A stretch of DNA of 64,000 nucleotides, taken from a virus (Duplodnaviria; Caudoviricetes). A program made the position numbers and the translations under genes. Below are positions 3,001 through 55,373 of this stretch, in pieces. The stretch lies in the IMG/VR virus record IMGVR_UViG_3300029305_003192; one strand, 5' to 3'. Below the pieces are notes generated by a model that was not told the origin of the DNA, ran no database searches, and saw only the letters and a list, made by a program, of their open reading frames with translations. Positions within the stretch are counted from its first letter, which is position 1, and every line of letters begins with the position of its first letter.

Positions 3001-6000
3001 ACACATCAACGTTCGGTGGTAAAGTAAAGAAAGCATTTACAACTCAGCATGCACTTGCTAAATATATAACCGACGGTCAATATCGTAAATCGGTAAATCA
3101 AAAACTTGAAAGTAAATCCAACGTGTTTAAATATGCATTGAATGCTGGATACCGTAAGAGTTTACATCAGCAGTATAATGTTACGAGTAGTAAGAGTCTC
3201 CTCGATTGCGTAATAGATGCTGGTTATTTCTATGGCATTAAGCAGGATAAGAAGGTCGATTATAGAAAATTATCAGCTGATACAGGAATCGACCCCGACA
3301 AACTGAAGAACCTCCTTGAGGGTCGAGAAGATGACTTGAAGGATGATGAGAGGACTATATTATATGATAAGGTAGGGTACGTCGGTGATAAGTTCCAGGC
3401 CGGTAAACTTATCAAGAACATGATAGGAACTAAGGTTAAGAATAAAGTCAATTCGATAAAAACCACCCTATATAATAAGACACAGCCATTACGTAATGCC
3501 GCTAAGAAAGTCCAGAGTGGAATCGGCGTAATTAAAGGCAAGATCGCTCCTCTTCAAGATAAGGGTAAGGAACTGTTTAAACAAGCATCAGAAGCTGCGA
3601 AGTTTAAGCTCGACAATAAGATGACCAGTAAACAGAAAGAATTCATGCATAAATATCTCACACCATATGAGATAAAGATATTCAAGCAACTGTCTATATC
3701 TGAGCGTAATAACATAATGAGATTGTGGGCTACTGATGATGGTCGCTCTGCAATAGCAGCATTGCAGCAACATGGCAAGGAGCTTAAGAAAAAGACAGAT
3801 GCCAATCGTAAGAAGCTCGGTCGTAATGTAGCAATGACTGATGAAGAAAAAGCTACATTTGAATGGCTCAAGGTCAACGCTAAGAAATCTAAATTAGAGC
3901 CAGATGTACAGAAGACATGTCTTAAGGTATACCGTAAGATGACATCTACCGAAAGGGCAGAAATTGAGGTATATCGTAAAAACAAAGACGTTGTGGGAGC
4001 ATTCACATATCTTAAAGACCATGCAGGAAAGATTAAATCGTTTGCTGAACGAGTTAAAGGCGCTGCGGGCGCTCTAAAGGCAGGTGCGTCCACGATAGCT
4101 GGTAAAGCCGCTGCGGGCGCATCCTCTATATTCGGTGCATTATTTGGAACAACAGGAGGTCTCAAATCCCTCGCTGGTATAGCGATAGGTGCAGGCGTCA
4201 TGTTCCTCTTTAATAAATTCCCAGGAATTATGGAGAGTATCAAGACTATTATTGGTAATATCAAGGATTGGTTCATGGAAACTGCATGGCCATTTATTAC
4301 TGATAAGATAGTTCCGGCTGCCAAGAAGATCTTTGAAGGAATCGGAACTGTAGTAGAGAAAATTTTCAACTTCATTGCCAACCCGGAAGAAGAGGGTGCT
4401 GCACTTTCTTCAAACTGGTTTACAGGAATGGATAAATCCGCAGAACAGTTGAAGGCTGAATCTGATACAGCTGCGAAGTATGGTTTATCAACTACAGAAG
4501 AAATGCTTAATTATGCGACTGGAGACCATGGAATATGGACTAGTGACATTGGTGATGGTGGTCTTGCAGAAATCGTTGGTAAAAAGGCGGGTTCTAAGTA
4601 TACAGCTAAGGATGGACTTATTGCAGCATATGTAGTTATCGGTAATGAGTACATGTTATACAATAACCCATTTATAGCACCGACAGTCGAGCAGTTGTCA
4701 GCATTTATCGAAGATCCTAAAATCTTAAAAGCCGTTAAGAAGTTCTATAAAGAAATTGCAACACAACGTGGAATTAAACCGAAGAAGTATGATGATACAT
4801 CGGCTTCCGATAGAAAAGCTGCTCTTCAGCAAGCTGTACAGTATCTGGAAGGTAAGTATGGTGGTCATAGAAACGTTCAAATCAACATGAATAACGCCGC
4901 TGGTATTACTATGGAACAGGCTGCTGCTAATGCAGCCGCAGAAGCATCAGGTAGTGTCGGCTCAGGCCACTTCATGCAGACTGACCCAAGATGGGCAAAT
5001 GCTAGATATGCAAATGCTGGTCGTGGTAATTTCTCCACTATGGGTAATGGTGGATGTGGACCTACTGCACTTGCTAATGCGGCAATGAGCCAGGGTGTAT
5101 CCACTAATCCTATGGCAGTAGCGCGTCTCTCCAGAAACGGCGGATATGCAGTAGGTGGGGGTACATCTGCTGGTCTATTCACTAACGGTGCTCGAAGACT
5201 TGGTCTTCAGTCTACAGCAATTGGAGCAGGCTCAATTAAGCGAGCACTTAGTAATGGTAACAGTGTCGTATTTGCTGGAAAGGGTAATGGCCTCTATACT
5301 AGAGCTGGACATATTATGTCTGCTCGTGGTATCGATAGACACGGAAATGTTATCGTTGATGACCCAATGAGACGCAATTCGGTAAGCGTCCCACTATCGA
5401 CTCTTGGTAGAGGTATGACTCATGCATGGTCTATTGGACGTGGCGGTGAGACATATACTGATAACAAGGGTAATGTTTATGAGAAGATAACCAGTTTTGA
5501 CCAGCTTAGTGCTGCAGCTAAGAAGAAAGATCTTACTAACTACTCCGACCAGGACCTCGGTATGCTCATGGCTAAATGCCAGAATGGCGAAGCCGATATT
5601 AATATAGCAGAATTTTACTTCCTTACATCACAACGAGAGATCAATAGAAAGAATGGTCTTGCAGACATGAGCTCTATGGACTATCATATCTCACTGCGTG
5701 GTGACGATAGTATGTTATATAATAACGTGCTTATGTACAACCAGACTAACGAGAAATGGAAGGATAAATTCCTCGTATACACTAATGACACATCAACTAT
5801 CGGTAATGCAGGATGTGTAGTTACTGCATTCGGCTCATTATTGGCCAACTTAACAGGACTCAACTATAGACCTGACTTTATGACAAATGCCATTGCCGGA
5901 AAGACTCGTACTGGCAATAGCCTGATTACTATTCTGGGAAATAGTAGATCCCCAAGTATTTCCAATGCAACGCCTCAAAGATTTCTCATTAATGGGCATA

Positions 6001-13701: not shown

Positions 13702-14751
13702 TTAGAACTTTATTGGTGATTCCAAGAAGAGCTCACCGAATCTATCGCTATCAATAGTAATGGTAGCTTGTCCTTCGTGTATATTGAATACCTGCCAATC
13801 TGCGGTAAACCCAGATATTCCGGCATGACCTCCACCATTACAGCACTCTCCAATAATGGTGGTGTCGTATTTATTAGAGTATAATGTATATGCCCATTCG
13901 CCTTTGTTGTTAATGTATTCCTTGATGGCGAAATCGTATTCTGTTTCCTTTCCGAATAACTCATAGTTGCCTACGTTAGTATTTACGATTACACAATTAC
14001 CAAAACAACATCCTTTACCTGTCTTAGCACTCTTTACCGTGAGTACGAATCGTCTGGCATTTCTCATAATGTGTGGATAAAGAATATTATTTTCATACCA
14101 TACGATTGATTTACCCTCGCTGATTATCTTATCCACAAAGTCTGTATCACCTTCAAGGCTATCCCATGCACATGGACTTTTAATCTTACTAAGATTCAAT
14201 CTCAGAGAACCCTTAAAGAATTCAAGTGAACCCTGATATTCATTCTTATATAAGTCGTGGTCATCCACGAGCTTATAAACCGTAGGCATACCTCTCATCG
14301 TGAAGTACATATCCCATGCCAAGAATGTTGCAGAGTGATCAACGTTTACATGTTTATGAAATGCACATGTGCCATTAATCTTATACTTCGATAAGCACCT
14401 TTCGCTTGACAGGTGATGGTCAATATAATCGACTCCGACATGTGGAAGTGATGCAATATCGTCAATAATTGCGAAATCGTCTACCGTTGAGATTGCTACA
14501 TCAACAATGATAACCTTCTTAAGGTTCTCGCATGCTGAAACTGCACCGGCGATATTCTTAGCAGCATTCTTAAGGCTGCTAATTGCCATTGGCCATATAT
14601 AACGGTCACTATAACCGCATTCAATGAGATGCTTAAGCGCAATACGTGCAGCAGCTGCTCCGTCATTATCATCATGAAATGCGATGATTGCTGTTGTATC
14701 ACTATTAAGTGTATTCACTGGGTATTTTCTTATAAAGTCATATCTAGTCAT
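13702..14751 (-). CDS. DHH/DHHA1 phosphoesterase (NrnA-like), paralog 1
   Basis: HDDNDG, IVDV, IDHH, DHDL and GGGHAGISGF motifs; start reassigned to the ATG at 14751 behind GGAGG. Confidence 0.85.
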   Translation of the reverse strand: MTRYDFIRKYPVNTLNSDTTAIIAFHDDNDGAAAARIALKHLIECGYSDRYIWPMAISSLKNAAKNIAGAVSACENLKKVIIVDVAISTVDDFAIIDDIASLPHVGVDYIDHHLSSERCLSKYKINGTCAFHKHVNVDHSATFLAWDMYFTMRGMPTVYKLVDDHDLYKNEYQGSLEFFKGSLRLNLSKIKSPCAWDSLEGDTDFVDKIISEGKSIVWYENNILYPHIMRNARRFVLTVKSAKTGKGCCFGNCVIVNTNVGNYELFGKETEYDFAIKEYINNKGEWAYTLYSNKYDTTIIGECCNGGGHAGISGFTADWQVFNIHEGQATITIDSDRFGELFLESPIKF

Positions 14752-14792
14752 TATTATTTTCCTCCATTTTATCTTATCCATACATACTTTAA

Positions 14793-14823
14793 ATCCCGAG
14801 ATATCAACACGATATCTCGGGAT
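14793..14823 (-). terminator. Hairpin between the DHH paralogs
   Basis: atcccgagatatc-aacac-gatatctcgggat. Confidence 0.65.
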
Positions 14824-14830
14824 AATCTAA

Positions 14831-15958
14831 TCAATTCATAGCTATTGCTTCATGTGCATTTTCCTGCCACTCCGTATCAATTTCTGTCTGCCTTTTCAGA
14901 TACATATATATTACATCTGACTCGAGGCCGGTTATTGTCATATAAGCCGTACCGTTGAGTTCTTTATTTGTATATACGTCATCCATGATGTTACGATTTA
15001 ATGTAAATCCACCGGCGCCTGGATGTCCACCACCACCGAAGAATTTACATATCGGTGTAATGTCATACTTATCAGAATATATGGTATATGTATAATCACC
15101 ATTCTTATTCTGGAAGTACTTGATGCACAGATCAAAGTCTTTATATCCCTCGCCATTCTTACCGAACAGTGCACTATTACCCCAACTGGAGTTGATAACT
15201 GCACAATTGTGGAAGTAAAATCTTTCGGCTTCAGATTCCAGCGCTACTTTGATTATCTGCATATTGCGACCGATCATAGGACATATTGAGCCATTGATGT
15301 ACTGACCGATAATATCACCGGCAGATACAATCTGGTCGATATGTTCACCCCAGATGGTTCCATCTGCAATCAGATCATCCCACAGAGGGTCCTTGATATC
15401 ATGCAGTGGGAAGAGTCCCGAACCATTGAAGAATTCGAGGGAACCTTCAAGTTCATGAGCGAAAATATCGTGGTCTGATATGAGCTCAAGTACCTGTGGT
15501 ACGTCTGTACTGATCAGTGCCTGCCAAGCAAGTTTAGCAGCAGATACATTTGTATCCAGTATTACATGCTGAAATAATGCCTTGTTATAATGGATACCGT
15601 TGTAGTCAATACCATCAAATAACTTCATATATGCATCAACTGATGTCTTATGATGATCAATCCAAGTCGTGTCGATGTCGAAGTTAACTTCGCGGATAAC
15701 CTCACCAAGACGAATAATATCTTCGGCTGTCGGGATACTGAGGTCAACGATAAAGATATGACCGATTTCATTTTCGTCGGTATTATATGAACGGATCATG
15801 TGCTCGATTAGATCAATCTGACCACCATTCAGTGTGACGTAGATACAGTTGATATCTTTGTCATCATAACCTAAAGCTCTGCATTTGTTGAGACATACTT
15901 TTGCTGCACCATAACCATCATTATCAGTATGGTGAAAGATAAGTGCGATTTTACCCAT
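14831..15958 (-). CDS. DHH/DHHA1 phosphoesterase, paralog 2
   Basis: HHTDNDG, IVDL, IDHHKT, DHDIF, GGGGHPGAGGF; shares GSLEFF.G with paralog 1. Confidence 0.88.
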   Translation of the reverse strand: MGKIALIFHHTDNDGYGAAKVCLNKCRALGYDDKDINCIYVTLNGGQIDLIEHMIRSYNTDENEIGHIFIVDLSIPTAEDIIRLGEVIREVNFDIDTTWIDHHKTSVDAYMKLFDGIDYNGIHYNKALFQHVILDTNVSAAKLAWQALISTDVPQVLELISDHDIFAHELEGSLEFFNGSGLFPLHDIKDPLWDDLIADGTIWGEHIDQIVSAGDIIGQYINGSICPMIGRNMQIIKVALESEAERFYFHNCAVINSSWGNSALFGKNGEGYKDFDLCIKYFQNKNGDYTYTIYSDKYDITPICKFFGGGGHPGAGGFTLNRNIMDDVYTNKELNGTAYMTITGLESDVIYMYLKRQTEIDTEWQENAHEAIAMN

Positions 15959-16184
15959 TATTATTTCCTCCTTTATTATATCCACCGTTTGTCATAGCGG
16001 TTGATAACGTCATAAGACCCATTAATGAATTCCAGGCCTTCTTACTTTTCTCTTCTTCCTCTCGGAAGAATTCTTCCCTCTCTTCGGGAGAGAGGGATTT
16101 GATATATTCTTCGCGGGCTTTCTGCTTACGTTCTTCATTAAGCTGATATTTGACTTGTTGGGCACGCTTTCCCATCTTAGCCAT
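15951..16184 (-). CDS. Small hypothetical protein
   Basis: GGAGG SD; packed into the operon. Confidence 0.6.
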   Translation of the reverse strand: MAKMGKRAQQVKYQLNEERKQKAREEYIKSLSPEEREEFFREEEEKSKKAWNSLMGLMTLSTAMTNGGYNKGGNNNG

Positions 16185-16718
16185 TTATATAAAACCTCCA
16201 ATCGTTCTGAATATCTCACATACATCACATGACACGAATGAGTCCATTATGCCGAATATATGAGGTCGCTGTGCGGTATACTTCATTATCAGTTCACTGC
16301 TTCCTAAATGTGATGCCGGGATTATATGTTCGTATATACGTAATATACATCTACCCTCAGTTTTAAGAACGATAGTATCAACACCAACAGGACACTCGGT
16401 CAATCCTATTGGAAAGTATAACGCGGGGGTAAATTGATTCTTCGACTTAAAGTTGTTAAGTGAATAAGCTATCAGAGGACCTTTGTCGAATTCAGCATCA
16501 CTCACCAATGATACTTTAAATCTTGATATTTCAGAAAGATAGTCCATTATTTCTTTAATCTTATAGCTGATACCATTTGACGATATAGTATCATGAATAT
16601 CAAACATTCCGAGGTCGCGAACGCCATCAGAATATTCAACATCTTTACCAATCAATGCAACGTCACTACGGATGTCACATATCTTATTGATCATTTTTAT
16701 AACTTCGTGTCTATCCAT
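16185..16718 (-). CDS. Hypothetical protein, paralog of 16736-17254
   Basis: Shares LAY..PALYFP..L.T..P..FG.M...DVC.IF.TIG.FI with its neighbour. Confidence 0.75.
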   Translation of the reverse strand: MDRHEVIKMINKICDIRSDVALIGKDVEYSDGVRDLGMFDIHDTISSNGISYKIKEIMDYLSEISRFKVSLVSDAEFDKGPLIAYSLNNFKSKNQFTPALYFPIGLTECPVGVDTIVLKTEGRCILRIYEHIIPASHLGSSELIMKYTAQRPHIFGIMDSFVSCDVCEIFRTIGGFI

Positions 16719-16735
16719 AATATTTCTCCTTTACA

Positions 16736-17254
16736 TTATATAAAACTGCCGATTGTTTTGAAGATATCACATACATCGAACATCATCTTTGGCGGCATCA
16801 TACCAAAGACATATGGATGAGAGCCGAATACTTCGAGCATCTTTTCCTCGGTAGATATACGCATCGCGTTTATTTCATACATATATACCCCCAGTATTCC
16901 CTTTGATCCTGTACGAAGACCGATACACATAATATCATTATCATCGTTTATATGTACTGGGAAATATAATGCGGGTAAATCCTTAACGGTCTGGATACCT
17001 TTACCCTCATAATATGCGAGACGTGGTAATTCTGTCAACTCATCATACAATAATACATTTATGTCCGTGCATTCTGACAACCTTCTGAATAAATATACAA
17101 TGGTGTCCGTAACGAGATAATTCTCTGGGGTCGGCATTACGTTCTCAATAAATCGTGGATATGTATAATCCGCGGTTTCTGGTTCAGCTGCAGATGCTCG
17201 TTCGTATACTGCACGCAATATTTCCTGTATCTCGAGTCTGTCTTTTCTTGTCAT
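16736..17254 (-). CDS. Hypothetical protein, paralog of 16185-16718
   Basis: Same shared motifs; start MTRKDR behind GGAGG. Confidence 0.75.
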   Translation of the reverse strand: MTRKDRLEIQEILRAVYERASAAEPETADYTYPRFIENVMPTPENYLVTDTIVYLFRRLSECTDINVLLYDELTELPRLAYYEGKGIQTVKDLPALYFPVHINDDNDIMCIGLRTGSKGILGVYMYEINAMRISTEEKMLEVFGSHPYVFGMMPPKMMFDVCDIFKTIGSFI

Positions 17255-17259
17255 AATAA

Positions 17260-18378
17260 TTACCTCCATTCTATATCAATTGCATTATCATTGAACGTAA
17301 TAGTACAGTTGAGCTTAACGTTTAGAGCAACATTGATATGATCATCAGTTCGCTCAACTGTTATAAGTGGACTGGATACTGGTATCGACTCATCACTAGC
17401 CGGTTGAGTATTATCTGGTTCGGATACATCATGCACAGCACCAGCCTTTTTGTCATAAGGGTTTGCTACCGGTATCTCAGTTTTATATGGGTAGTTTTTC
17501 GGCTTTTTAATACCCTTATTATTTGCAGGAGGGTAATCAGGGATAATTTCATCATCCGAAACGACCAGATCATAATTTGGGGTATAGCTACTGAAATCAT
17601 AAGCTTTAAAGTCGTCTGCTCTGCTGGCTCCAGATATCCATGCTCTGACTGCACAACCAGTAACTCTGTACTTCTTTGCAATTTCATCTACTGGATATCC
17701 TTTAAGTATATCATTAGCAATCATATCAATATACTTATCCAATGGAAGTTTAACAACTTTTCCACCGCGTTTACTAGCCGGAGGTAGATGAGCTAATCTA
17801 TCTCCTACCACATGTTTCCATGTTTTACCATACCTGATATTCGATATAGTCATAGGATCTACGCCGAAATCAGTAGCGATGCTAGTGATACTATTATTAG
17901 CGAGAAGTCTCTGCACGATTACTTCGACATTATCCGCTGATAATTTAGTTGGGCGTTTGCTAATGATCCGCTTGGGTGTATCGGTATTTATTACCTCAGA
18001 TTTTGATTCATCATTTGGTGACTTGGTATCTATTACTGGTTCCGAATCTAATAAATCGACTACTTCGTTATCAGTCGTATCACTAACCGATTCATGTACA
18101 GTTTCACCCTCACTAATTTCTGGTATGACTTTCGGTTCGTCTTGTTCGTCCTTCTTGGCATTGCTTTCAATGACTTTGTAACCAGGCATTGTTGGATACA
18201 TAGTCCTAATTGATTCTTCCAGAGACTTCTTCCTTGAGAATTTCTCAGGATGTTGTCTAAATGCTTCAATGTCAGTTTTAAGTACGCCGGTCATTTTAGA
18301 GATGTCAGCGTTAGATGACCCTCTAGCAATCATTTCTTTAATCAGTTCGCGATTGCTACTGTCAATCTTGTTTGCCAT
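17260..18378 (-). CDS. Multi-HTH DNA-binding protein
   Basis: Three HTH-like segments: GSSNADISKMTGV, SITSIATDFGVDPMTISNIRYGKTWKHV and GYPVDEIAKKYRVTGCAVRAW. Confidence 0.6.
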   Translation of the reverse strand: MANKIDSSNRELIKEMIARGSSNADISKMTGVLKTDIEAFRQHPEKFSRKKSLEESIRTMYPTMPGYKVIESNAKKDEQDEPKVIPEISEGETVHESVSDTTDNEVVDLLDSEPVIDTKSPNDESKSEVINTDTPKRIISKRPTKLSADNVEVIVQRLLANNSITSIATDFGVDPMTISNIRYGKTWKHVVGDRLAHLPPASKRGGKVVKLPLDKYIDMIANDILKGYPVDEIAKKYRVTGCAVRAWISGASRADDFKAYDFSSYTPNYDLVVSDDEIIPDYPPANNKGIKKPKNYPYKTEIPVANPYDKKAGAVHDVSEPDNTQPASDESIPVSSPLITVERTDDHINVALNVKLNCTITFNDNAIDIEWR

Positions 18379-24614: not shown

Positions 24615-27266
24615 TCATGAAAGAACGATTATCTTTCCGTGCCTATTAATGAGGTGTTCGTCGGCAGATGTTGTAATGATATCTACCGGGTAGCCTTCAA
24701 AGATGTCGTTATGGGTAATGAAGAATGCTTGCTCGGCATTAATCTTCTTAAAGTACTGAGAGAAGATGAGTAATAATGAGCGACGGCTTACATTATGAAT
24801 TGGACCATCGACTTCGTCAAGTAACGGGATGTTATATTTAGAAGAGCTCTTCATCATCAGAGCAAATGATAATGCTATTGAGATAATGGCTCTTTCACCC
24901 TGGGATGCAGAAACTACATCATCGATAATACGCCCACCTTTACTATACGGAATACGGAATTCCTTATCATTGATTACGAATTCACATACCTCCACATCAG
25001 GAAGTACATTGGCGAGCATATCATTTATGTCGTCGACACAGTCATTCAGGAACGACTGTACATATATGAGTGGGATGCCGTTCTTCGGCGAAGATGCCTT
25101 GATGATGAGATTAAGTATCTTGAGTTCATTTGCTATATCGGCAAATTCTCTCTGATAATCAATAACCGTGTTGAGTTTAATAATACCAGCAGTGAGCTCG
25201 CCATCAATAGCTCTAACCTCACCCTGCAGAATAGTGAGAGTGTCCTCAAGGGATTTAATTCTGTCTTTATTACTCAATACGATACCGTGTCTGTCATCGA
25301 GCTTCTTGAGTTCCAACTGAGCGTTCTCAATATCCCGAATACTTGTCTGTATTTCATCCTTGATCTTATTGATATTCTTAAGACAGTCATAGGACCTATT
25401 GAGAGTAGCCTGGTATTCAGTGATGGATTTATTAGCTTCCTCAATATTCCTGATAGCTTCCTTATTAGAACGAATCTGCTCAACCACCGCTTTATATTCA
25501 GCCTGAATTTTCTCAACTGATACATCGAGGGTGCTATCGAGACTTCTTCTGAGTTCAATACTCTTAACTTCCGCTATTGCGAGCTTCTCACGCTTGACAC
25601 ACTTCTCAAGAGTGTCTATAATGACATCATTATCATACCATATACGAGAGGTATTCTTACTGAGAATCTTATCCACTGATGTGATAGATAGAGCCCCTAT
25701 ATTTCGAAGTTTGTTTGCAACACCGTTGAATATCTTACGACACTGCTCAATACGGTTCCATACTACTGGGTATGATGAGAGCTCATCAATTCTACTATTC
25801 AGATAGTCAATTTCATTTTGTATCTTGGTAATCTTTGTCCTCATCTCATTCTTATCCGTGGTACTCTTTATAGTATTAGGATGAGTATAGAAGAATGGAC
25901 ATGTTGAGAATATCTTACACTCCTTAGGCAATGCGAGCTCATCAGATACATCATAACTATCCACGTACTTTATATTGGCAGCTGACCTCTGGAGCTTGTA
26001 TATTTTACCCTGTATCATGTCTATCTGATGTCTAGCACCAGATACCATCTCGGAATTGCCTTTAAGAAGAGCATGAACGACATCAGGATTCTCAATAACT
26101 ACCGCATTAAGTTCAATGTCCATAACCCTAAGCTGACCAATGATTGTATTGATTTCTTCAGAGTTGTATTCACATTCGAAGCCCTCAATATCTGCTCGCA
26201 GTGATTCTATCTCTTCAAGATACTTCTTATACTCAGCCTGTAACTGAGCAATATAATCGTCATTAGCAGATGTCTGTAGCAAGTGCTCGAGTTCTATTCT
26301 TCGCTTCTCCTGCTGTTGATTATCCATATTCAATGAACTGATGAGTGCATTGTTATTCTGGATATCAGCATCAGCTTTACCGAGCTCTCTATTGATGTTA
26401 TCAAGAGTGCCATACTGCTCCAAGAGAAGGTCTATTTCAAACTGCTTGGAAGTTATCTTGTCGGTGAGAGATGATATCAGGGTGCGTAGATAATCCATAC
26501 GAGCTTCATACTCAGTTACGGTTTTGCCTTCAAGATATATTTCACTTTCCGTTCTGAGTGAGCTGAGTTCATCATTAGTAGCAGCGACTCTTCCCTCCGC
26601 AAGTTTCAACTGATTAGCGAGTTCTTCATTACGACCACGCATTATTGCGATATCATCTTCACTCACACCGTTGAGTTTACGGGCGATAAGCTGTGACTGA
26701 GCAGTCAATCCTCTAGCTCTCTCTTTCATATCCTTGTGTATAGTAAGATATGTCTCAACATCTGTCTGTCTACGAGCAATATACTCCTTACGTTCGATAG
26801 TCGGCATATCTATGACGTTAGCTACATTAGGACCGAGTCTGAGAAGTCTTGTCAAATCTGCAGAGAATCCGAGCTCCGCTTCAACTATCTCTCTGAATGA
26901 GTTCTGATTACCATTCTCATTCAACTCAACGCCGTTCTTCTCGATGAATGACTTCACGGCATGATGGTCCTTCGTCCAAGTATACTTATGGACTATTCGG
27001 TATATGTCTCCATCGTCATTATATACAATCTCCTTCTTACCATTCTCTCCCGAGATGATAATAGGATTGGAATTTCTTTCATCGAGAGTTCCCACATGTG
27101 CATAGGGTATAAGATGACTAAGTATTGTGGTCTTACCAGAACCCATTGGTCCTACCAATAGCATAATCTGGTTCTCACACTTTGTCAGGTCTATGTGTAG
27201 TTTTCGTTTACCCATACCAGTTTCGATAGCTATAAAGTTCTCAAAGAGAACTGATTCTATCTTCAT
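24615..27266 (-). CDS. SbcC/Rad50-like SMC ATPase (recombination nuclease subunit)
   Basis: Walker A GPMGSGKT, long coiled coil with central CKIFSTCPF, signature ASQGE, Walker B LLDEVDG, H-loop ITHN. Confidence 0.9.
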   Translation of the reverse strand: MKIESVLFENFIAIETGMGKRKLHIDLTKCENQIMLLVGPMGSGKTTILSHLIPYAHVGTLDERNSNPIIISGENGKKEIVYNDDGDIYRIVHKYTWTKDHHAVKSFIEKNGVELNENGNQNSFREIVEAELGFSADLTRLLRLGPNVANVIDMPTIERKEYIARRQTDVETYLTIHKDMKERARGLTAQSQLIARKLNGVSEDDIAIMRGRNEELANQLKLAEGRVAATNDELSSLRTESEIYLEGKTVTEYEARMDYLRTLISSLTDKITSKQFEIDLLLEQYGTLDNINRELGKADADIQNNNALISSLNMDNQQQEKRRIELEHLLQTSANDDYIAQLQAEYKKYLEEIESLRADIEGFECEYNSEEINTIIGQLRVMDIELNAVVIENPDVVHALLKGNSEMVSGARHQIDMIQGKIYKLQRSAANIKYVDSYDVSDELALPKECKIFSTCPFFYTHPNTIKSTTDKNEMRTKITKIQNEIDYLNSRIDELSSYPVVWNRIEQCRKIFNGVANKLRNIGALSITSVDKILSKNTSRIWYDNDVIIDTLEKCVKREKLAIAEVKSIELRRSLDSTLDVSVEKIQAEYKAVVEQIRSNKEAIRNIEEANKSITEYQATLNRSYDCLKNINKIKDEIQTSIRDIENAQLELKKLDDRHGIVLSNKDRIKSLEDTLTILQGEVRAIDGELTAGIIKLNTVIDYQREFADIANELKILNLIIKASSPKNGIPLIYVQSFLNDCVDDINDMLANVLPDVEVCEFVINDKEFRIPYSKGGRIIDDVVSASQGERAIISIALSFALMMKSSSKYNIPLLDEVDGPIHNVSRRSLLLIFSQYFKKINAEQAFFITHNDIFEGYPVDIITTSADEHLINRHGKIIVLS

Positions 27267-27288: not shown

Positions 27289-27298
27289 ATGATATATA
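27289..27298 (-). promoter_or_regulatory. Early-type motif TATATATCAT
   Basis: Directly upstream of the SbcC SD. Confidence 0.55.
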
Positions 27299-27304
27299 TC
27301 TTCA

Positions 27305-27335
27305 CAAAAAAGAAGGGTGGGATTATCCACCCTTC
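27305..27335 (-). terminator. Terminator of the MRP-leader gene cluster
   Basis: gaagggtgg/ccacccttc stem plus A tract. Confidence 0.75.
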
Positions 27336-27340
27336 AGATA

Positions 27341-27448
27341 TCAGAATATCCACAATTCGCATGATCCGAATATATACTGAATTGTCTTGCGACTCTTTCG
27401 TAGTTGACGTAGATACCCTTTTCGACGTCGACGTCTTACTGGACGCAT
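27341..27448 (-). CDS. 35-aa Arg-rich peptide MRPVRRRRRKGYLRQLRKSRKTIQYIFGSCELWIF (not in the ORF track)
   Basis: Translated by hand; overlaps the previous gene's stop, has an AGGTG SD, ends before the terminator and matches the neighbours' leader. Confidence 0.7.
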   Translation of the reverse strand: MRPVRRRRRKGYLRQLRKSRKTIQYIFGSCELWIF

Positions 27449-27780
27449 TGAGTTACACCTGCTTCTGATATATTTAGAACGTATTCACTGAAGTACTGTC
27501 TGTTCGATTTCAGCTTTATCAGGTTAGTATTCTTACTCAATACATGGAAGAGCATCGATACTGCAGTCATGTGAGCTTTTACGATATCTGGACACTCGTT
27601 CACATCGGTATGGAACGTTGCGTTATTATCTTTCACTGTCGAGACATACATACCCTTTGGAGTGCAGTTATCACCTGAATGTGTAGCATGTACATATGCC
27701 CGTAATTGACGGATAACCTGTTTAGTGTGACGTATACGCGTCAGTGTGCCCTTTGCCATTCTTCGTCTTCTTGGTCTCAT
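27436..27780 (-). CDS. MRP-leader small protein
   Basis: Starts MRPRRRRMAKGTLTRIR. Confidence 0.75.
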   Translation of the reverse strand: MRPRRRRMAKGTLTRIRHTKQVIRQLRAYVHATHSGDNCTPKGMYVSTVKDNNATFHTDVNECPDIVKAHMTAVSMLFHVLSKNTNLIKLKSNRQYFSEYVLNISEAGVTQCVQ

Positions 27781-27782
27781 AA

Positions 27783-28121
27783 TTAGCCCTCCTCTATATT
27801 TTCTATACTATGCACGCGTACGTGCTCTTCGATATACTTAGAATATGGATTCGCCAACATGTGTAGTGTAGGTTCATTATTAGCAACTGCATTATCGAGT
27901 GCTTCTATTATTGATACACCTTCGATCGTGTATTTGGATTCGTCCGTGCCGTCAGAGAATATTACAGACAGTACACGATCACCATCATCTGAGTACTCCG
28001 GCATGAATGTGAAGTTGCAGCATAAATCACGAATGTGGTTTGAATACCACTCGATAAATTTACGGTTCTTACGCATAAATCGCAGATACCCTTTCTTCCT
28101 TCTTTGTCTTCTTGGTCTCAT
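27783..28121 (-). CDS. MRP-leader small protein
   Basis: Starts MRPRRQRRKKGYLRFMRKNRKFI; GGAGGA SD. Confidence 0.75.
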   Translation of the reverse strand: MRPRRQRRKKGYLRFMRKNRKFIEWYSNHIRDLCCNFTFMPEYSDDGDRVLSVIFSDGTDESKYTIEGVSIIEALDNAVANNEPTLHMLANPYSKYIEEHVRVHSIENIEEG

Positions 28122-28123
28122 AA

Positions 28124-28507
28124 TTATTCCTCCTTTACAATACCGTCATAACTCTTAATTGGTCCAATAGGGTCCTTTATTCCCTCTAACCAATCTCTGC
28201 GATAGCCGTTTATTCGCTCCACCAGCTGCTCTGTCGGGTCTTTCGATTCATCTACGATAGATTTAGAATACGGCAAGTAGTAGTATGCAGGAACCGATAG
28301 TAATGACTCTTTAAACGTTTTCACAAAATGCTCAGATGTATATAGCAGTACAAACTCGCCATCTGGTGCTTTTGCATATAAATTACCGTGAATATTGGTT
28401 ACCTCCAGTGATCTTACTGGAGGTAACCCAAGACGCTTTATCACGTATGAATTCTTTCGAATGATTGTACGTACGCCCTTCTTCAGGCGTTTTCTTTTAG
28501 GTCTCAT
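28124..28507 (-). CDS. MRP-leader small protein
   Basis: True start MRPKRKRLKKGVRTIIRKN at 28507 (ATGA overlap, GGAGGA SD). Confidence 0.75.
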   Translation of the reverse strand: MRPKRKRLKKGVRTIIRKNSYVIKRLGLPPVRSLEVTNIHGNLYAKAPDGEFVLLYTSEHFVKTFKESLLSVPAYYYLPYSKSIVDESKDPTEQLVERINGYRRDWLEGIKDPIGPIKSYDGIVKEE

Positions 28508-28815
28508 GTATTTTCTCCTCCTGGCATTGAAACTTGATATGCCCACTTAACTGACATCTGTGGTAGTATGGGCATAATCTGTTCGGATTCTGATATATTA
28601 TTGGAACTCGGGCATGGCTCTTTCTTACATACAAATACCGTTAATTTACCGAAATTGTCTGGGTCATATGTCACAAAGTGCGTATATAGAGGGTTCATAT
28701 ACTCTTCGTGGTGATTTATATAATACTCCATTAGTGTTCGATGAATAGCCTTTTCCACACCTTTAAAATCACGTAACAACCTTCGATAACCCGGAGAGCG
28801 CCTGTAGTGCCTCAT
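28504..28815 (-). CDS. MRH-leader small protein
   Basis: Starts MRHYRRSPGYRRLLR; similar to 28820-29110 over its N-terminal half. Confidence 0.75.
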   Translation of the reverse strand: MRHYRRSPGYRRLLRDFKGVEKAIHRTLMEYYINHHEEYMNPLYTHFVTYDPDNFGKLTVFVCKKEPCPSSNNISESEQIMPILPQMSVKWAYQVSMPGGENT

Positions 28816-28819
28816 GAAT

Positions 28820-29110
28820 TTACCTCCTTCTTTTCCGCACGTAGTTTCTCAGAGATAATAATTGAGGGTCATTAGATTTTATACATATCATCCTCTTATC
28901 GATTTTATCGCTATTGAAGTATATAGTGCGGAGCCAGATGTTACCAGTAGATATATTGGAAGATACTCGGTGTCTAAATATCCAATTATCGTACTCTTCG
29001 GGATAATACTGAAGCAGATACGATATCATATGTCTATGATCTATCTTCTCTACTTTACGTGCGATTTTTATATTCCGCCTTGAGCCCGGGGAACGTCGGT
29101 AGTGTCTCAT
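28820..29110 (-). CDS. MRH-leader small protein
   Basis: Starts MRHYRRSPGSRRNIK; AAGGAGG SD. Confidence 0.75.
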   Translation of the reverse strand: MRHYRRSPGSRRNIKIARKVEKIDHRHMISYLLQYYPEEYDNWIFRHRVSSNISTGNIWLRTIYFNSDKIDKRMICIKSNDPQLLSLRNYVRKRRR

Positions 29111-29124
29111 ATAACAATCCCTCC

Positions 29125-29883
29125 TTAGGGTATATTGAACGAATCTTCACTAGATACGATAATCTTGCCTGCACCATCAATAGTAGATGCACCATCAGTG
29201 GTTTCGGTCACGATAGGATTCTGCATGTCAATAGGTAAGTGGTTTATTTCTCTCTGAATCTCTGGAGCAGTGAGAGATTTACCTACAGGGTTCTCTGGAT
29301 CGAGCTCGTAGAGGATAATGGAATATCCCAGCTTGAGTGCCTGACAACCTCTATCCATAAGCAGGAATGAGATATTACCATCTTCACTTCTCATTACAGA
29401 GGAGAAGTTAAAGAATGCGTTTCTATCACTGAAACCATCCTTAACTTCTTCGATAGATACATGCTTGGCATGAAATGCCTGCTTGAGAGCACGCTTGAGG
29501 ATATTATCCTTTGTAGTAATCTCTGGAATAGTAAGCTTTGTGCTCTCGTTGTATACGTGCTGGATATTCTTCTTATCCTTAAGAACCACCAGCATGTTAC
29601 CCGGCTCCATGTTAGATACATGTGTTTTGATGAGATAGTCAGCACGCTCATCTGGGTCTGGATGAACGAATTCATGGAATCCGTCACTGTCCACGTAAAT
29701 ACCCGGCTCAATTGATGACTTCTTTATCTTACCACGGTAGAGGAAGAACACATCGTCATCTCCGTAATCTTCTCTGAAGATATACGCTTTACCATACTCA
29801 GGGACTGTACGATCTTTATCATACAGCTCCATATCATAGACTCCTGTGTTGGTAACGATAATATTTTTGCTTGTTTCACTCAT
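29125..29883 (-). CDS. Hypothetical protein, possible C-terminal HTH
   Basis: 252-aa ORF with AAGGAG SD. Confidence 0.65.
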   Translation of the reverse strand: MSETSKNIIVTNTGVYDMELYDKDRTVPEYGKAYIFREDYGDDDVFFLYRGKIKKSSIEPGIYVDSDGFHEFVHPDPDERADYLIKTHVSNMEPGNMLVVLKDKKNIQHVYNESTKLTIPEITTKDNILKRALKQAFHAKHVSIEEVKDGFSDRNAFFNFSSVMRSEDGNISFLLMDRGCQALKLGYSIILYELDPENPVGKSLTAPEIQREINHLPIDMQNPIVTETTDGASTIDGAGKIIVSSEDSFNIP

Positions 29884-42262: not shown

Positions 42263-42736
42263 TCAGACTGGTAATATCACCAGCCCGAAACTTTCTACAA
42301 GGCCTCTTTCTACAAGCCAACGTATATCAATGTATACTTTTCTCGTTTCATAACGAGGGCTTTCGGTAGGTTCTATAGGACCACCGAAGTTCGCGCGGAC
42401 CCTTCCACCGCGCCTACCGTTAGATCTAGATCTACGGCGTTCAATAGTCTCGAACATAGGCACATTGAGTGCCTGGTGAATACTCACCCATTCGTCATAT
42501 GTGATGTTTGAGCCGTTTTCGTTGATGGGTCGGCCTCTTTTAAAGAGGCGATAGCCGAATACGGCTATGTGCTCAGTTCCCATATTTAACTGCCAGGCTT
42601 CAAGCGAAGCCTGGATTTCTCCAGGGCTCATACCTGATTCATGTGGCTGTACCACGAAGCCAGCATAATACGCTCTAAGGAGCTTGCTGCTGCGGTTGAT
42701 AACTTTTGATAAACCACGGTTTCTCTTAGGTCTCAT
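42263..42736 (-). CDS. MRP-leader protein (isolated copy)
   Basis: True start MRPKRNRGLSKVINRSSKLLRAYY at 42736 behind AAGGAGG; TATATATCAT at 42820-42829. Confidence 0.7.
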   Translation of the reverse strand: MRPKRNRGLSKVINRSSKLLRAYYAGFVVQPHESGMSPGEIQASLEAWQLNMGTEHIAVFGYRLFKRGRPINENGSNITYDEWVSIHQALNVPMFETIERRRSRSNGRRGGRVRANFGGPIEPTESPRYETRKVYIDIRWLVERGLVESFGLVILPV

Positions 42737-43015
42737 AGGACCTCCTTTCTCCACCTTGCGGTGGTATGGCAGTTATATTTGACAGGGACTACCGACCCTC
42801 ATGTTATTATTACACTAATATGATATATATGCAGTATATGATGAAATCACGCCCATTTAAATTATACCACGAGCGGAACTATCTGGTAGGTGAATAACTA
42901 AAGATTATCCCAAGTAATCCTTTCACGTAAAGACCGATACCATTGGTATCGGTCTTCTTCCTCCGCCCTAGGGTGCATACAAAAAAGACAACGGTATTAC
43001 CGTTGTCTCGATTAT

Positions 43016-44426: not shown

Positions 44427-47400
44427 TTATGGGACCATGTAACCGCCAGTTAATTCGATATCTTCAGAGTCTTCCCAGTCTGCATTATATGTCAAACTAG
44501 AATGTTCCAAGGCTTCGATATTCTGGGTCTTAATAATATCATCGAATATTTCCTTCGTACGAATCTCTGCCTTGAGTTTATCGTAATTCTTAATCATACC
44601 ATTACATACGAAGAATGTACCGCGTAAATCTGCAAGACTACCTGGGCTATACAGGCTTGGGTCTCTATCGAGAATACCCTGCTTACCAGAGTTAATTACG
44701 AGAGCAACAAACTGAGAGCAGAAGAGATTCTCTGGATCAGTCTTAGGGTTATTGAAGATATAGTTGATGAGTCCTCCTACATTGTAACGGTACTTCTCAC
44801 GATGAGCGAAGATGTTATCAACTGTATTCTTCACTGCCTTTATCTGAGACTCCTCAAAGAACATGACGTGGAGTGCATACTCAGTGCTTGGAGGATATGA
44901 GAAATGATTTGCCTTTGGATTGAACGATTCAATACCTGCACCGAATCCTCGGGCATTAATGATACCTTTCTTGACAACCTTATTACCAAACGTGAAGCAC
45001 TCACCCATACTTGGGTCAAATGAGATGAACGAATGTGACCAGTTCTCCTTAGTAAAACTACGAATAACTGTACCAAGTGGTGAGATATTCTTCATAAGTC
45101 CTATATAAAGCGGATAATATCTCTTGCCCTGATAGGACTGCCATAAGCGGTCGTTAAACTTAATGGGTTCATATACAAACTCGGGCATTGCTGACTCCTT
45201 TGCTACTATTCCAGAATAGGGCACGTTTGGAGCCCAGCCTGTCATTACCGAATCCTCGGCAGGTTTATAATATTTACCGAATCGATTATTCTCGCCAATA
45301 TTGATATCAGTAATACCGAACTCGGTAATCTTAGCATTGATTGCATCTGCAAGTTCCTTCTCTCTGTCCTCATTGACATAATTAAAGAACTTGATAGCAA
45401 GCATAACATGCTCAGCATCTGGCATTGGGTACTTCTTTATATCAGGAAGTCCAAAATCAGTACGTTCCTTAGAAGTTAATGCAGACTCAAGTGCAAGAAG
45501 ATATCCTTTATCGTTATCATGGGTTGCATATTTAGCATTAATTCCCTTGTCAGTTATAGGCTTAAATCCATATTTAGTATACATCTTATGTGCTACTTCG
45601 TTATCACTGTCGACTCTAAGAGCATTGCCCTTCATAGTCTTAACCGCGAAATTGAGTAACTGACTGCCAAGACCATAACCCTGGTACTCTGGACGAATTT
45701 CGAGGGTTGAAATCCAGTTATAATCTGGGTCTTTAAAGCTCACACAAGCATCACCAACGAGTTTATCGCCATCTAACCAGATACGGGAATCATGGGTTTC
45801 ATCTGCCGGCCATGCGTGCTTAAGCATTTTAGATTCTGCTTCATATTTCTTAAGCAGTGCCGGTGTCATCTTAAGACACGTGAAATCGGACAACGACTTC
45901 TTACCTTTAGATGTATAATCTTTAGATATGTTAGATTTCATTGATGATTCAGTAGCCGGCTGTGGTACATGCTCAAATACACTAGCTTCTTCAACTTCGT
46001 CCGCATGGAAGATATCCCATATTACAGATGATGCTGATGATTCAAGTGCTGTGGACTTCTCAGCATTGGTACGCATAAACTTTCTTAACTTATCAAGATT
46101 GTGATCATCCTGTGCATACCACGCCTTCATCTCGGCACGCTGTTGTTCGTCGTAGACATTGGCCTCGCGAATAGTCATACGTTTTAACGAAGTATGTTTT
46201 GACGTACCCTTAATAATCATAGGCTTGTCCTTGAGATATTCATGATCTATTCTCGCTGAGATATGAATGCCTTCCCATATAAATAACAACTCAGGTCTCT
46301 TGGTACAGTAATCAAGAAGCCAATTAAATGCACTATTGAACTTTGCGCGTTTTGTATCAAAAGAATCATCTTTCTCATAAACGCATCCTGTTTCAGCATA
46401 CATCTTACGGAATATCTGACTGACATTTTTCTGATATCCATTAGGATTCCATTTCTCATCCTGACCAAATTCACGTGTTATACGGTCGAGTTCAATATAG
46501 AACGCATCGTGAGATTTCGAAAGTTCTTCACCAAGGGTGGATTTACCAGAACCGGAAAGACCTGTGATATAGAGAATATTCTGACCTTTCTTTCTCTGCC
46601 ACTTATCGATATTGAAGTACTCGTCCTTATGATTGATAAATGCTGACTCAGTAGCAGGAGCCATACGATACATTACTTCAGTCCTACCCATATACTCATC
46701 AGTAATCTGAAGCCCATATTTCTCATACATACCAATGGCCGGAGTATTTGATTTGCGTACTTCAAGATACTTACCTCCGAGATTATTAATGGCGTAATCC
46801 AAAAGCATCGTTCCATATCCCTTACGACGTTCATTTTCATCAACCACAAGAAGTTCAATACAACCCGTATCCTGTGATATACTGAAGAAGCCTACGGGAT
46901 ATGATTTACCATCATAAAGACCGTAGCATGATATTTTGCTGAATGCCTTTGGGTTGGCTTTAAATCGTAAAAGATATGCGTCTCGCGTCATGCTAAGTGT
47001 TGATGAATCAGGAATCTTTTCGATGTCGGATTTGGTCATTGGTTTTATCTTAATACTACCAGATGCCGCTTCGGTAGCCGGAAGAAGTTCCATCTCAACT
47101 CGCTTAACCATATCATCATCTATAGCCAGCTTGCACTCAAGAAGGAATCTATAGAAGTCCTGATATTCCTTATTAACCACCTTGAAGTAGTTAACCTTAG
47201 GATTCTTAATCATTACTTCGTCCTTAACCTTTTCGGTCTTTCTGTCATATTCGACAATATGTGTGGCATGACTCTCGTTATCACCGCCATCCTTAATCTC
47301 TATCTCAAGATTGAGGTCTGGGATATAGAAGTCAGGAATATAGAAGTGCTGCTTACCTTCATACATGTATGTGTAAGTATGAGGGGATGGTCCCATAATA

Positions 47401-47855
47401 TCCTTCGACTTGAGTCCGAGTACGAACTCACATGTCATAAGGAAATCCTTCTCATAAGATGAGAGGTATAATACAGAACCACCATCTCTGAATTTATACG
47501 GCTTGCTCTTAGAAGCAAGCATTTTTCTCTGCTGGTCTGGGTCATTTAAGAGGTGTGGTACACCATATTTATCGACCATTCTCTTCTTTGCCTCAGCACA
47601 GTATTTCTTTTTGCAATTAGGGTCCGAGCAGTACCTGGAGTATTTACCAGTAGTCTCATTCCATTCAGTTGGTTTATGACACTGCACACATGAACCATGT
47701 GTCTTTCCAGTGTCCACATAATAAAAATAACGAGCAACTGAATATCCATCCGGAATTGTATCCGGATGGAGTCTTTCAATATGCTCACCCCAGCCTGAGA
47801 GAGATTTGAATCTCATACCACAGACAGGGCATTTATATACACTAACCTTTCTCAT
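44427..47855 (-). CDS. Multi-enzyme protein (Zn-finger + PD-(D/E)XK nuclease, GNAT, P-loop kinase, GNAT, small helical domain, permuted NlpC/P60); candidate protease-processed virion polyprotein
   Basis: CPVC..H....H; YLSSYE..YIPDF..EIEIK; RRKGYG..N.PAI.MYEKYG; GLSGSGKS; YQGYGLG..N.VA..MYTKYGF; FGLP..KKYPMPDAEHV; WSHSFI..Y.YN..FCSQFV; linkers PATEA/PATES/ALES/AKES. Confidence 0.8.
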   Translation of the reverse strand: MRKVSVYKCPVCGMRFKSLSGWGEHIERLHPDTIPDGYSVARYFYYVDTGKTHGSCVQCHKPTEWNETTGKYSRYCSDPNCKKKYCAEAKKRMVDKYGVPHLLNDPDQQRKMLASKSKPYKFRDGGSVLYLSSYEKDFLMTCEFVLGLKSKDIMGPSPHTYTYMYEGKQHFYIPDFYIPDLNLEIEIKDGGDNESHATHIVEYDRKTEKVKDEVMIKNPKVNYFKVVNKEYQDFYRFLLECKLAIDDDMVKRVEMELLPATEAASGSIKIKPMTKSDIEKIPDSSTLSMTRDAYLLRFKANPKAFSKISCYGLYDGKSYPVGFFSISQDTGCIELLVVDENERRKGYGTMLLDYAINNLGGKYLEVRKSNTPAIGMYEKYGLQITDEYMGRTEVMYRMAPATESAFINHKDEYFNIDKWQRKKGQNILYITGLSGSGKSTLGEELSKSHDAFYIELDRITREFGQDEKWNPNGYQKNVSQIFRKMYAETGCVYEKDDSFDTKRAKFNSAFNWLLDYCTKRPELLFIWEGIHISARIDHEYLKDKPMIIKGTSKHTSLKRMTIREANVYDEQQRAEMKAWYAQDDHNLDKLRKFMRTNAEKSTALESSASSVIWDIFHADEVEEASVFEHVPQPATESSMKSNISKDYTSKGKKSLSDFTCLKMTPALLKKYEAESKMLKHAWPADETHDSRIWLDGDKLVGDACVSFKDPDYNWISTLEIRPEYQGYGLGSQLLNFAVKTMKGNALRVDSDNEVAHKMYTKYGFKPITDKGINAKYATHDNDKGYLLALESALTSKERTDFGLPDIKKYPMPDAEHVMLAIKFFNYVNEDREKELADAINAKITEFGITDINIGENNRFGKYYKPAEDSVMTGWAPNVPYSGIVAKESAMPEFVYEPIKFNDRLWQSYQGKRYYPLYIGLMKNISPLGTVIRSFTKENWSHSFISFDPSMGECFTFGNKVVKKGIINARGFGAGIESFNPKANHFSYPPSTEYALHVMFFEESQIKAVKNTVDNIFAHREKYRYNVGGLINYIFNNPKTDPENLFCSQFVALVINSGKQGILDRDPSLYSPGSLADLRGTFFVCNGMIKNYDKLKAEIRTKEIFDDIIKTQNIEALEHSSLTYNADWEDSEDIELTGGYMVP

Positions 47856-52505: not shown

Positions 52506-53087
52506 TTAACTCTCGTGAAGCACGAGTTTCTTAACTGCTATCTTGAGCATTTCTCTGATTTGGGATTTAGCCACAATAATACATCCGGGTTCGAACGTAG
52601 TATCACTTTCGTTGAATTTTGGCGGATCTACTAGCATACACGAATGGGTAATTGGATGAAGAATGAATACTCTACCGAAATCATCGAGCATTTTCATGAA
52701 TCCTTCAGTGAGAGCATCAATCGCCAGACCATTAAATGGTTCAACCATTCGGGCAAGGTCTAAACATGGTATATTGATACGAACGAGAGGGTCTACCGTA
52801 AATGCCGCAGCTGAGTCGCTAGTATCCTCAAATTCGATCCACGATGCATCGGATATACTGAGAGATATTCGTCCCCTATCTTTATCGATATCCATTTTAC
52901 AAATAAACTTTGCAAGCTGCACACTATCGAAATGGATAAACATCCAGCAAAGCCTTTCAGGATGCTTTTCTATATCGAATTTCCTAGGAGCCTCAAACGT
53001 AAACTGTGATTTAGACGTCGAAGTTATTAACACATCTGCCAAGATGTGATGAGATTCATATAAAGCCGTAGGGCATATAGTAGTCAT
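52506..53087 (-). CDS. Hypothetical, member 5 of a five-gene paralog array
   Basis: IPCLDLARM..AIDALTEGF. Confidence 0.7.
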   Translation of the reverse strand: MTTICPTALYESHHILADVLITSTSKSQFTFEAPRKFDIEKHPERLCWMFIHFDSVQLAKFICKMDIDKDRGRISLSISDASWIEFEDTSDSAAAFTVDPLVRINIPCLDLARMVEPFNGLAIDALTEGFMKMLDDFGRVFILHPITHSCMLVDPPKFNESDTTFEPGCIIVAKSQIREMLKIAVKKLVLHES

Positions 53088-53627
53088 TTACAAGACACAT
53101 CCTCTCTTATTACACTCAAAGATATTTCTGACTGCGATATCAAAGATATCAAACAACTGCTGTTCATCGAATTCTGGAGGCTCGATTGTGATTAGCGTAT
53201 TATTCGCATCCATCATATATGATGGTAGCTCACTAAGTATCATATGCTGAAATTCTTCCACCAGTATATCAATAGCGTATGAACGGCATCGGTCATTGAA
53301 CGATACTAGATCATATATTGGTATTTGTACCTCTGTAATCTTGGTACTATCTGACAAGGAATTGCCTTCAGCAACCATTAATCGTATAACGTTGAGTTCA
53401 ACAATGTCGTTGCGGTAAGAACCCATAAACACTGTCATTCTGGAAATGACTTCGTTACTTAAGAGCGATTCTGTTGTCAGATTAACTTGTATCGTCGTAA
53501 TTATGCTCGTACTATGATTATCAGTAATCGTTTCAATTGGAACGATTGTCATATTGGCTCTAGCTTTCGGTATAAACGTGTAGTTATATTTGATACACTT
53601 GATGTTAGTTACATTTGACATAAGCAT
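53088..53627 (-). CDS. Hypothetical, member 4 of the array
   Basis: IPIYDLVSF..AIDILVEEF..LP. Confidence 0.7.
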   Translation of the reverse strand: MLMSNVTNIKCIKYNYTFIPKARANMTIVPIETITDNHSTSIITTIQVNLTTESLLSNEVISRMTVFMGSYRNDIVELNVIRLMVAEGNSLSDSTKITEVQIPIYDLVSFNDRCRSYAIDILVEEFQHMILSELPSYMMDANNTLITIEPPEFDEQQLFDIFDIAVRNIFECNKRGCVL

Positions 53628-53644
53628 TCTCCTTTGATTTAATA

Positions 53645-54777: not shown

Positions 54778-54796
54778 TTCAAATACCTCCATTATT

Positions 54797-55342: not shown

Positions 55343-55373
55343 AATTTTTACTCTCCTTTGATTCATATTTTAT

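Follow-up and report, generated by a model that had tools for sequence, protein, structure and literature searches.

A tandem array of small genes with conserved arginine-rich N-termini and fast-diverging bodies in a hypervariable locus of a probable AR9-like jumbo phage

The stretch analysed here (the window) is 64,000 nucleotides (nt) of the IMG/VR record IMGVR_UViG_3300029305_003192, a virus of the Duplodnaviria (Caudoviricetes). Positions 27341-29110 of its minus strand hold an array of six small genes, designated A to F, whose proteins begin with an arginine-rich leader. The array is best read as a family of small accessory genes in tandem, specific to one lineage and probably translationally coupled, with which a transcription/replication operon closes at its 3' end. 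An N-terminal module of about 25 residues is held by purifying selection at the protein level; the bodies behind it (70-100 residues) evolve far faster than the neighbouring genes and are gained, lost and mosaically replaced between near-identical phages. An earlier sequence-only reading had reported six consecutive, tightly packed minus-strand open reading frames (ORFs), and all six were found listed where it had placed them and with the N-termini it had quoted:

28820-29110 (-), gene A: 96 amino acids (aa), MRHYRRSPG-type start, basic throughout, KRRR at the C-terminus, paralog of B
28504-28815 (-), gene B: 103 aa, MRHYRRSPG-type start, seen in every relative
28124-28507 (-), gene C: 127 aa, start MRPKRKRLKKG, an indel-prone mosaic middle between conserved N- and C-terminal parts
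27783-28121 (-), gene D: 112 aa, start MRPRRQRRKKG, an acidic body with a net charge of -12
27436-27780 (-), gene E: 114 aa, start MRPRRRRMAKG
27341-27448 (-), gene F: 35 aa, a leader 64% identical to the D leader, plus a hydrophobic tail of 12 residues

The longest ORF of gene C runs from a GTG at 28546; the ATG at 28507, which is preceded by a Shine-Dalgarno (SD) sequence, is the start called in relatives. Gene F is essentially a leader-only stub, and may be just a truncated gene copy.

Similarity among C, D, E and F was limited to residues 1-26 in an all-against-all blastp comparison. Their common leader spans residues 1-25 and consists of MRPxRxRxxKG followed by a basic helix. Against composition-preserving shuffles the C-F leaders scored z = 4.9-11.5, and the C-F bodies were at chance (z = -1.3 to +1.7); leader-less profiles of the four body families gave hhalign probabilities below 1%. 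A and B are alike over residues 1-50 (blastp) and weakly beyond, with a body identity of 28%, a leader z of 13.5 and a body z of 3.2; judging from these alignments they are ordinary paralogs of each other. The claim that the sequences diverge after about 25 aa, except in the two genes with MRH starts, agrees with these scores, which are near zero for the C-F bodies and 3.2 for the A/B bodies. The further claim of one Arg-rich leader on all six genes stood only in part: C to F share residues 1-25, but among comparisons of MRH (A/B) with MRP (C-F) leaders only B-D reached z = 3.4 and the remaining pairs were not significant. Because the two kinds of start are only marginally alike, the array is, by alignment, made up of two leader classes (A/B and C-F) and not of one. 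When the N-termini of about 1,290 Met-started ORFs of at least 30 aa on the 72-kb contig were ranked by basicity, the array supplied four of the top six and six of the top 12.

Comparison of orthologue pairs shows that the array genes are real coding sequences. The ratio of non-synonymous to synonymous substitution rates (dN/dS) was 0.14-0.43 for all array genes (0.27-0.28 for gene B), with a synonymous excess over the neutral expectation in each (p = 0.033 to 7e-7); gene F differs from its copy in the relative L005 by four synonymous and two non-synonymous changes. Spurious ORFs were rejected on the dN/dS below 1 together with the SD sequences and coupling described below. Within the orthologue pairs the leaders gave dN/dS of 0-0.29, even at a synonymous divergence (dS) of 1-1.5, and the bodies 0.21-0.53; the summed ratio of non-synonymous to synonymous differences (Nd/Sd) was 0.61 for leaders and 1.55 for bodies, from pairs that are not independent of each other. 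Between paralogs, the same codon was used at only 3-9 of the 10-16 identical leader residues. The arginines of F are encoded by CGN codons and those of D and E by AGA, and the first 21 nt are the only identical DNA stretch of the D and E leaders. Since codons differ at identical residues and dN/dS is low, conservation acts at the protein level, and the codon comparison shows that the leader is kept as a peptide and not as a DNA or RNA element. A DNA-level repeat, a regulatory element and recent gene conversion were rejected as sources of the leader conservation, the codons being different and the synonymous divergence high; a bias towards A-rich, unstructured translation starts was rejected because F encodes the same peptide with CGN codons.

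Syntenic contigs were reached via proteins 63-94% identical to D. The variable locus is anchored on both sides by genes of near-constant sequence:

29125-29883 (-), 252-aa gene: left anchor of the variable locus, 14-nt gap upstream of the array, 99.6-100% identical in relatives
24615-27266 (-), SbcC-like ATPase: 883 aa, anchor on the right side, with 99.3-99.7% identity in relatives

Between these anchors lie A-B-C-D-E-F in the window and in L006 and L007, B-C-D-E-F in L005, and B-C-D in L001-L004 and L008-L010, so that the gene count per locus is three, five or six. Flanking proteins are 94-100% identical to those of the window and array proteins 65-92%. The dN/dS of the flanking genes was 0.01-0.07 for four of five, and 0.11-0.14 for a 130-aa gene beyond the SbcC-like gene. 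Gene A is absent from three relative lineages, as an exact one-unit indel whose ends fall in the ~26 nt with which the A and B leaders begin (blastn). Gene E is absent from the L001 and L008 lineages, and its L005 allele is only 66% identical, with a dS of 1.24; E and F are missing together with the C-terminus of D in two lineages, and F is conserved in L005. The dS of D and E alleles is 0.8-1.2 versus 0.15-0.4 in the flanks, several-fold higher, which therefore points to allele replacement by recombination. Taken across the contigs, these comparisons show the locus to be hypervariable, an island sharply bounded by two almost invariant genes. Most likely tandem duplication, together with unequal recombination among the leader-coding repeats, makes the array grow and shrink.

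In its middle, at about residues 56-95, protein C takes at least four forms among the homologues P0010-P0020: two unrelated inserts, a hybrid of the two and clean deletions. With the N- and C-terminal parts staying conserved, this resembles a loop that tolerates insertions or a hotspot of recombination.

The array resembles polymorphic effector and toxin cassettes in having a conserved 5' module, variable 3' modules, recombination at the conserved part, a gene number that varies between strains, and an orphan fragment (F). It differs from them in having no secretion or trafficking domain and no toxin-immunity pairs, in its tiny proteins, and in its phage context.

The A/B pair shows, at the level of alignment, that paralog bodies decay faster than leaders within this array; C, D and E may therefore be old tandem paralogs with a constrained N-terminus. 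The plainest form of this idea, that all members are divergent tandem paralogs of one fold whose N-terminal helix is simply the slowest-evolving piece (for example a contact with a shared partner), is rather unlikely overall but a serious contender. It would account for the intermediate state of A and B in the leader and body scores, for the similar size of members A to E (96-127 aa), and for orthologue bodies that are ~40% different where flanking proteins are ~1% different. Other tandem paralog pairs occur in the window, and no leaderless homologue of a body was met in the searches. A MAFFT alignment of all families also has a near-invariant Pro and Gly after the helix, in a P-D-x-G-x-V-L-like hairpin, but these columns may be an alignment artefact. 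The C/D/E body comparisons at chance speak against this reading, as does F, which retains just the leader.

Structure prediction with AlphaFold2 (AF2) bears on the same question. With the alignment of its own family, D was modelled at a predicted local distance difference test score (pLDDT) of 56.7 and a predicted template modelling score (pTM) of 0.37, with the low-confidence elements H4-18, H20-33, E37-43, E49-56, E61-66, H69-80 and H86-109. The all-family alignment, used as a test for a common fold, gave a mean pLDDT of 54.8 and a pTM of 0.24, and thus did not raise confidence in the D body. Only the leader gained (pLDDT 72-75); it was predicted as coil up to residue 11 and as helix from residue 12 onwards. 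A Foldseek search of the PDB with the first, low-confidence D model returned nothing at E <= 0.001.

The composition of the leader suggests what it may do. It carries a net charge of +10 to +12 in C-F, against +6 to +7 in A and B, and the net charge of the bodies ranges from that of D, given above, to +8 in A. Residues 2-25 hold 10-12 net positive charges, mostly Arg, as in N-terminal Arg-rich segments of 10-25 residues of the arginine-rich motif (ARM) type. In layout the module may be a flexible tail of Arg and Lys over residues 2-10, then Gly11, which is invariant, then a basic helix that runs from residue 12 to about 30. The reading we favour, tentatively, is that the module is an ARM- or protamine-like nucleic-acid-binding arm holding the diversifying bodies on DNA or RNA, because the highly charged, Arg-rich chemistry fits and the neighbouring genes encode DNA and RNA enzymes. 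Such an arm would bind polyanions (DNA or RNA) and tether different bodies to phage or host nucleic acid; the bodies would be diversifying, presumably host-facing effector parts, as in an arms-race locus.

Early phage proteins provide a parallel. Lambda N, P22 N and HK022 Nun are proteins of ~100 aa in which the N-terminal, Arg-rich part of ~20 residues alone is conserved and binds nucleic acid. The array proteins are like them in that the Arg-rich N-terminus is conserved and the remainder has diverged beyond recognition. They are unlike them in sequence, to which no similarity was seen, and in forming a tandem array of five to six genes per genome; the bodies of ARM proteins are disordered, whereas those of the array are predicted, in a low-confidence model, to be folded alpha/beta.

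Several points weigh against the nucleic-acid arm and its effector bodies. The array proteins gave no match to a known DNA- or RNA-binding family or to a solved structure in Pfam, PHROG, NCBIfam or the PDB, and the models are of low confidence (pLDDT 55-57). The acidic body of D could neutralise its own leader. On the substitution ratios, dN/dS below 1 in the bodies makes no case for positive selection, and their fast change could reflect relaxed constraint instead of an arms race.

Other functions of the leader were weighed as well. A Tat or Sec signal was rejected because no hydrophobic h-region of 7-20 residues follows the basic part; in the sequences as read directly, charge continues to position ~25, as the sequence-only reading had also concluded. 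Residues 2-10 contain no hydrophobic residue, and over residues 12-29 the hydrophobic moment (muH) was clearly above shuffles only in B. An oligomerisation or docking helix that binds one shared partner (a replication or transcription machine, or other array members) is quite improbable. Conserved hydrophobic positions 13, 16 and 23 do lie on one helix face, and the genes are co-translated from one operon in a fixed order; but helices at a net charge of +10 or more should repel each other unless a polyanion is present, and B is the single leader with a significant moment. Very unlikely is an amphipathic helix that targets the proteins to membranes with anionic lipids. The helix is basic and somewhat periodic in hydrophobicity, with a muH of 0.5-0.7 in B, C, D and F, which would suit it, yet the moment is not significant in A, E and G, residues 2-10 are purely Arg, Lys, Pro and Gln and give no hydrophobic anchor, Arg is strongly preferred over Lys, and the genomic context is one of nucleic-acid enzymes.

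One of the closest known designs is found in phage T4, where a capsid targeting sequence (CTS) is present on IPI, IPII, IPIII and their relatives and is portable in T4; the poor conservation of these internal proteins between close phages has been explained by an arms race with restriction by the host (PMC9026906). The array shares with the T4 CTS proteins a short conserved N-terminal peptide on dissimilar small, often basic proteins. The T4 CTS, however, a propeptide lost on maturation, has ~10 residues, is not Arg-rich and terminates in a Glu-specific prohead-protease site with Glu at P1, whereas the array module has ~25 residues, a charge of +10 to +12 and no shared cleavage motif. T4 also belongs to an unrelated lineage with unrelated sequences, and the array lies among replication and transcription genes. 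In the alignments no shared Glu or other cleavage motif was found at or after the end of the C-F leaders; near the leader end a Glu occurs among C-F only in D (position 24), and in A and B at position 21.

By analogy, the leader might be a virion-packaging tag, riding on the DNA or binding the core, on proteins that would leave the capsid together with the genome and serve as early anti-defence effectors in the manner of T4 internal proteins. This is unlikely. The overall pattern is as in T4, where small proteins are dissimilar and poorly conserved apart from a short N-terminus that they have in common (PMC9026906), and the leader is basic and protamine-like; but C-F lack a conserved Glu or a shared cleavage motif where the T4 CTS ends in a gp21 site, and the array stands in an operon with helicase and RNA polymerase (RNAP) genes and not with head genes. 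The packaging tag would also find a parallel in gene F, which resembles small basic DNA-packaging peptides such as phiX174 J. Both phiX174 J and the protamines are small basic DNA-condensing peptides, and like them F has a basic N-terminal part with runs such as P-R-R-R-R, followed by a hydrophobic C-terminal tail. It has no homology to either. A more far-reaching proposal, likewise improbable, is that the leader is more than the conserved end of one fold, namely a portable address that loads interchangeable effector bodies onto the phage genome, in the capsid and/or at entry, with recombination at the leader DNA swapping cargo between phages and F acting as a competitor or filler. What the sequence-only reading had described, a shared basic module on variable cargo, held as far as the conserved N-terminus and dissimilar bodies are concerned; its address tag is just one reading among several, for about five body types in one lineage.

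The identity of the phage bears on one further function. The contig encodes split RNAP beta-like subunits, a tail sheath, an SbcC-like ATPase, a PhuZ-like tubulin, a UvsX-like recombinase and an NAD-ligase. At 26-28% identity, the SbcC-like protein was matched best in AR9/PBS1 and in Staphylococcus and Yersinia jumbo phages, which therefore places the virus, an uncultured one, as a distant AR9-like jumbo phage. An identical E protein was found on many metagenomic contigs, among them one of 239.6 kb from JGI sample 3300018475; the phage is therefore probably ~240 kb in size and common in its habitat. Import into a phage nucleus or replication compartment, which the sequence-only reading had offered as a role of the leader, is extremely unlikely in such a phage. 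The leader does resemble a classical basic nuclear localization signal, and the window holds a PhuZ-like tubulin gene (phrog_4733, E = 1.4e-6). However, the nearest phages are AR9/PBS1-like, and AR9 is stated to lie outside the Chimalliviridae, the chimallin-encoding family (PMC13282480). Neither a chimallin-like protein nor an import system was found among the large ORFs of the window that were scanned, out of a genome of ~240 kb. In nucleus-forming phages, cargo is reportedly selected by residues of the folded surface and not by a terminal signal (PMC12908238), and the leader occurs on only about five proteins, none of them a replication or transcription enzyme. The tubulin/PhuZ-like protein (59338-60537, minus strand) is an observation in its own right, the nearest relatives of the phage being AR9-like and without chimallin.

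As far as the databases searched extend, the family is lineage-restricted and undescribed; the sequence-only reading had likewise not recognised it as a described family. Searches of Pfam, PHROG and NCBIfam returned nothing better than E ~0.007, all far below the curated cut-offs, and no array protein matched a PDB sequence. Look-ups of D and C in the ESM Atlas gave no usable match. No match was obtained by megablast of the locus or tblastn of D against 50,697 phage records, by an IMG/VR scan with SbcC, or by two scans of metagenome contigs, one using the C alignment and one using P0022 (see below), from which near relatives may have been excluded. A leader profile, as had been proposed earlier, was used in two kinds of search. 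A word-indexed search returned only C-, D- and E-type proteins of the same phage lineage, and an exhaustive hmmsearch of 1.84 billion cluster representatives, with a profile of 40 positions, returned six proteins, namely the B, C, D, E and G types and P0022; apart from P0022, nothing beyond the phage lineage was recovered. Neither the word-indexed nor the exhaustive profile searches found the leader on other cargo or a leaderless homologue of any body. P0022 has 99 aa and is a distant homologue of C, 40% identical to that of the window, with the leader visibly its best-kept part. It occurs as a single copy, in a different context, on short contigs. None of its neighbours has a counterpart on the 72-kb contig; a 79-aa neighbour matches a PHROG whose function is unknown, and the others match nothing.

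The G type of this search corresponds to a possible dispersed member of the family elsewhere in the window:

42263-42736 (-), gene G: 157 aa, start MRPKRNRG, possible dispersed member

Its leader scored z = 3.2-4.8 against those of C, D and E, and it has no family match. The gene has an early-promoter-like motif of its own (ATATATATCAT-N6-G) at 42820-42829, a strong SD and a second, internal Arg/Gly-rich stretch (RRRSRSNGRRGGR).

The junctions within the array, read directly from the DNA, are tight throughout: a 4-nt gap between A and B, an ATGA overlap between B and C, TAAttATG at both C/D and D/E, and a 13-nt overlap between E and F. A GGAGG-type SD precedes every array start, within the last codons of the preceding gene; that of gene F is AGGTG. 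The C-terminal residues of the array genes (KRRR, PGGENT, VKEE and IEEG; 27780-29125, minus strand) are encoded by the SD that serves the following gene; translational coupling thus partly dictates how these proteins end. The downstream border is formed by two signals:

27302-27335 (-), strong intrinsic terminator: 9-bp stem with six GC pairs (27335-27312) followed by a T run, 5 nt past the F stop
27289-27298 (-), early-promoter-like motif ATATATATCAT-N6-G: ahead of the SbcC-like gene, downstream border of the array transcription unit

The array has no early-promoter-like motif of its own and begins 14 nt after the 252-aa gene; it is therefore probably the tail of a longer operon, with the order RNAP beta-like subunits, helicase, 208-aa gene, 252-aa gene and array. 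The early-promoter consensus of AR9 is AAATATATATTAT-(6N)-G (PMC5312081). The motif before the SbcC-like gene resembles it. Exact copies of TATATATCAT were found on the minus strand at seven positions of the window (24117, 27289, 39214, 41455, 42820, 44226 and 62290). Each of the three that were inspected (27289, 42820 and 62290) falls in a gap of the ORF list and precedes the next gene of the minus strand, and two copies read in sequence fit the AR9 early-promoter layout of an AT-rich box, 6 nt and a G. With one mismatch allowed, TATATATCAT occurred 22 times versus 19.9 in shuffles and was not enriched, so that only the exact or extended form is informative.

Tandem duplications are frequent in this phage. 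Besides the array, the minus strand carries two DHH phosphoesterases with 33% identity (13702-15985), two 177-aa proteins with 27% identity (16185-17269), and a 192-aa/189-aa pair with 29% identity over 90 aa (54214-55366), the last within five similar-sized genes at 52506-55366. Two long ORFs were also recorded. A 1142-aa ORF at 44427-47855 (minus strand) appears from PHROG matches to be an unusual multi-enzyme fusion, with an endonuclease-like N-terminus, two GNAT acetyltransferase regions, a P-loop ATPase/kinase-like part and an enoyl-CoA-hydratase-like part. An ORF of at least 2,749 aa (3-8252, plus strand) runs off the start of the window.

The sequence family is undescribed; its design, in which small phage proteins of a variable locus change fast but have an N-terminal module in common, has a precedent in T4. 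Hypervariable loci of small phage genes are where anti-defence and host-takeover functions tend to occur, and the jumbo phages that do not belong to the nucleus-forming group have been little explored. If the array consists only of fast-drifting paralogs, it is an ordinary accessory region. If the module is a portable docking arm, it would provide a simple handle for pull-downs, localisation studies and cargo swaps, and would be a second, chemically different case of the T4 internal-protein design, in which a common tag is joined to variable effectors. Should the leader prove to be a portable address, the locus would be a system of phage effector cassettes that parallels the T4 CTS but works through DNA affinity.

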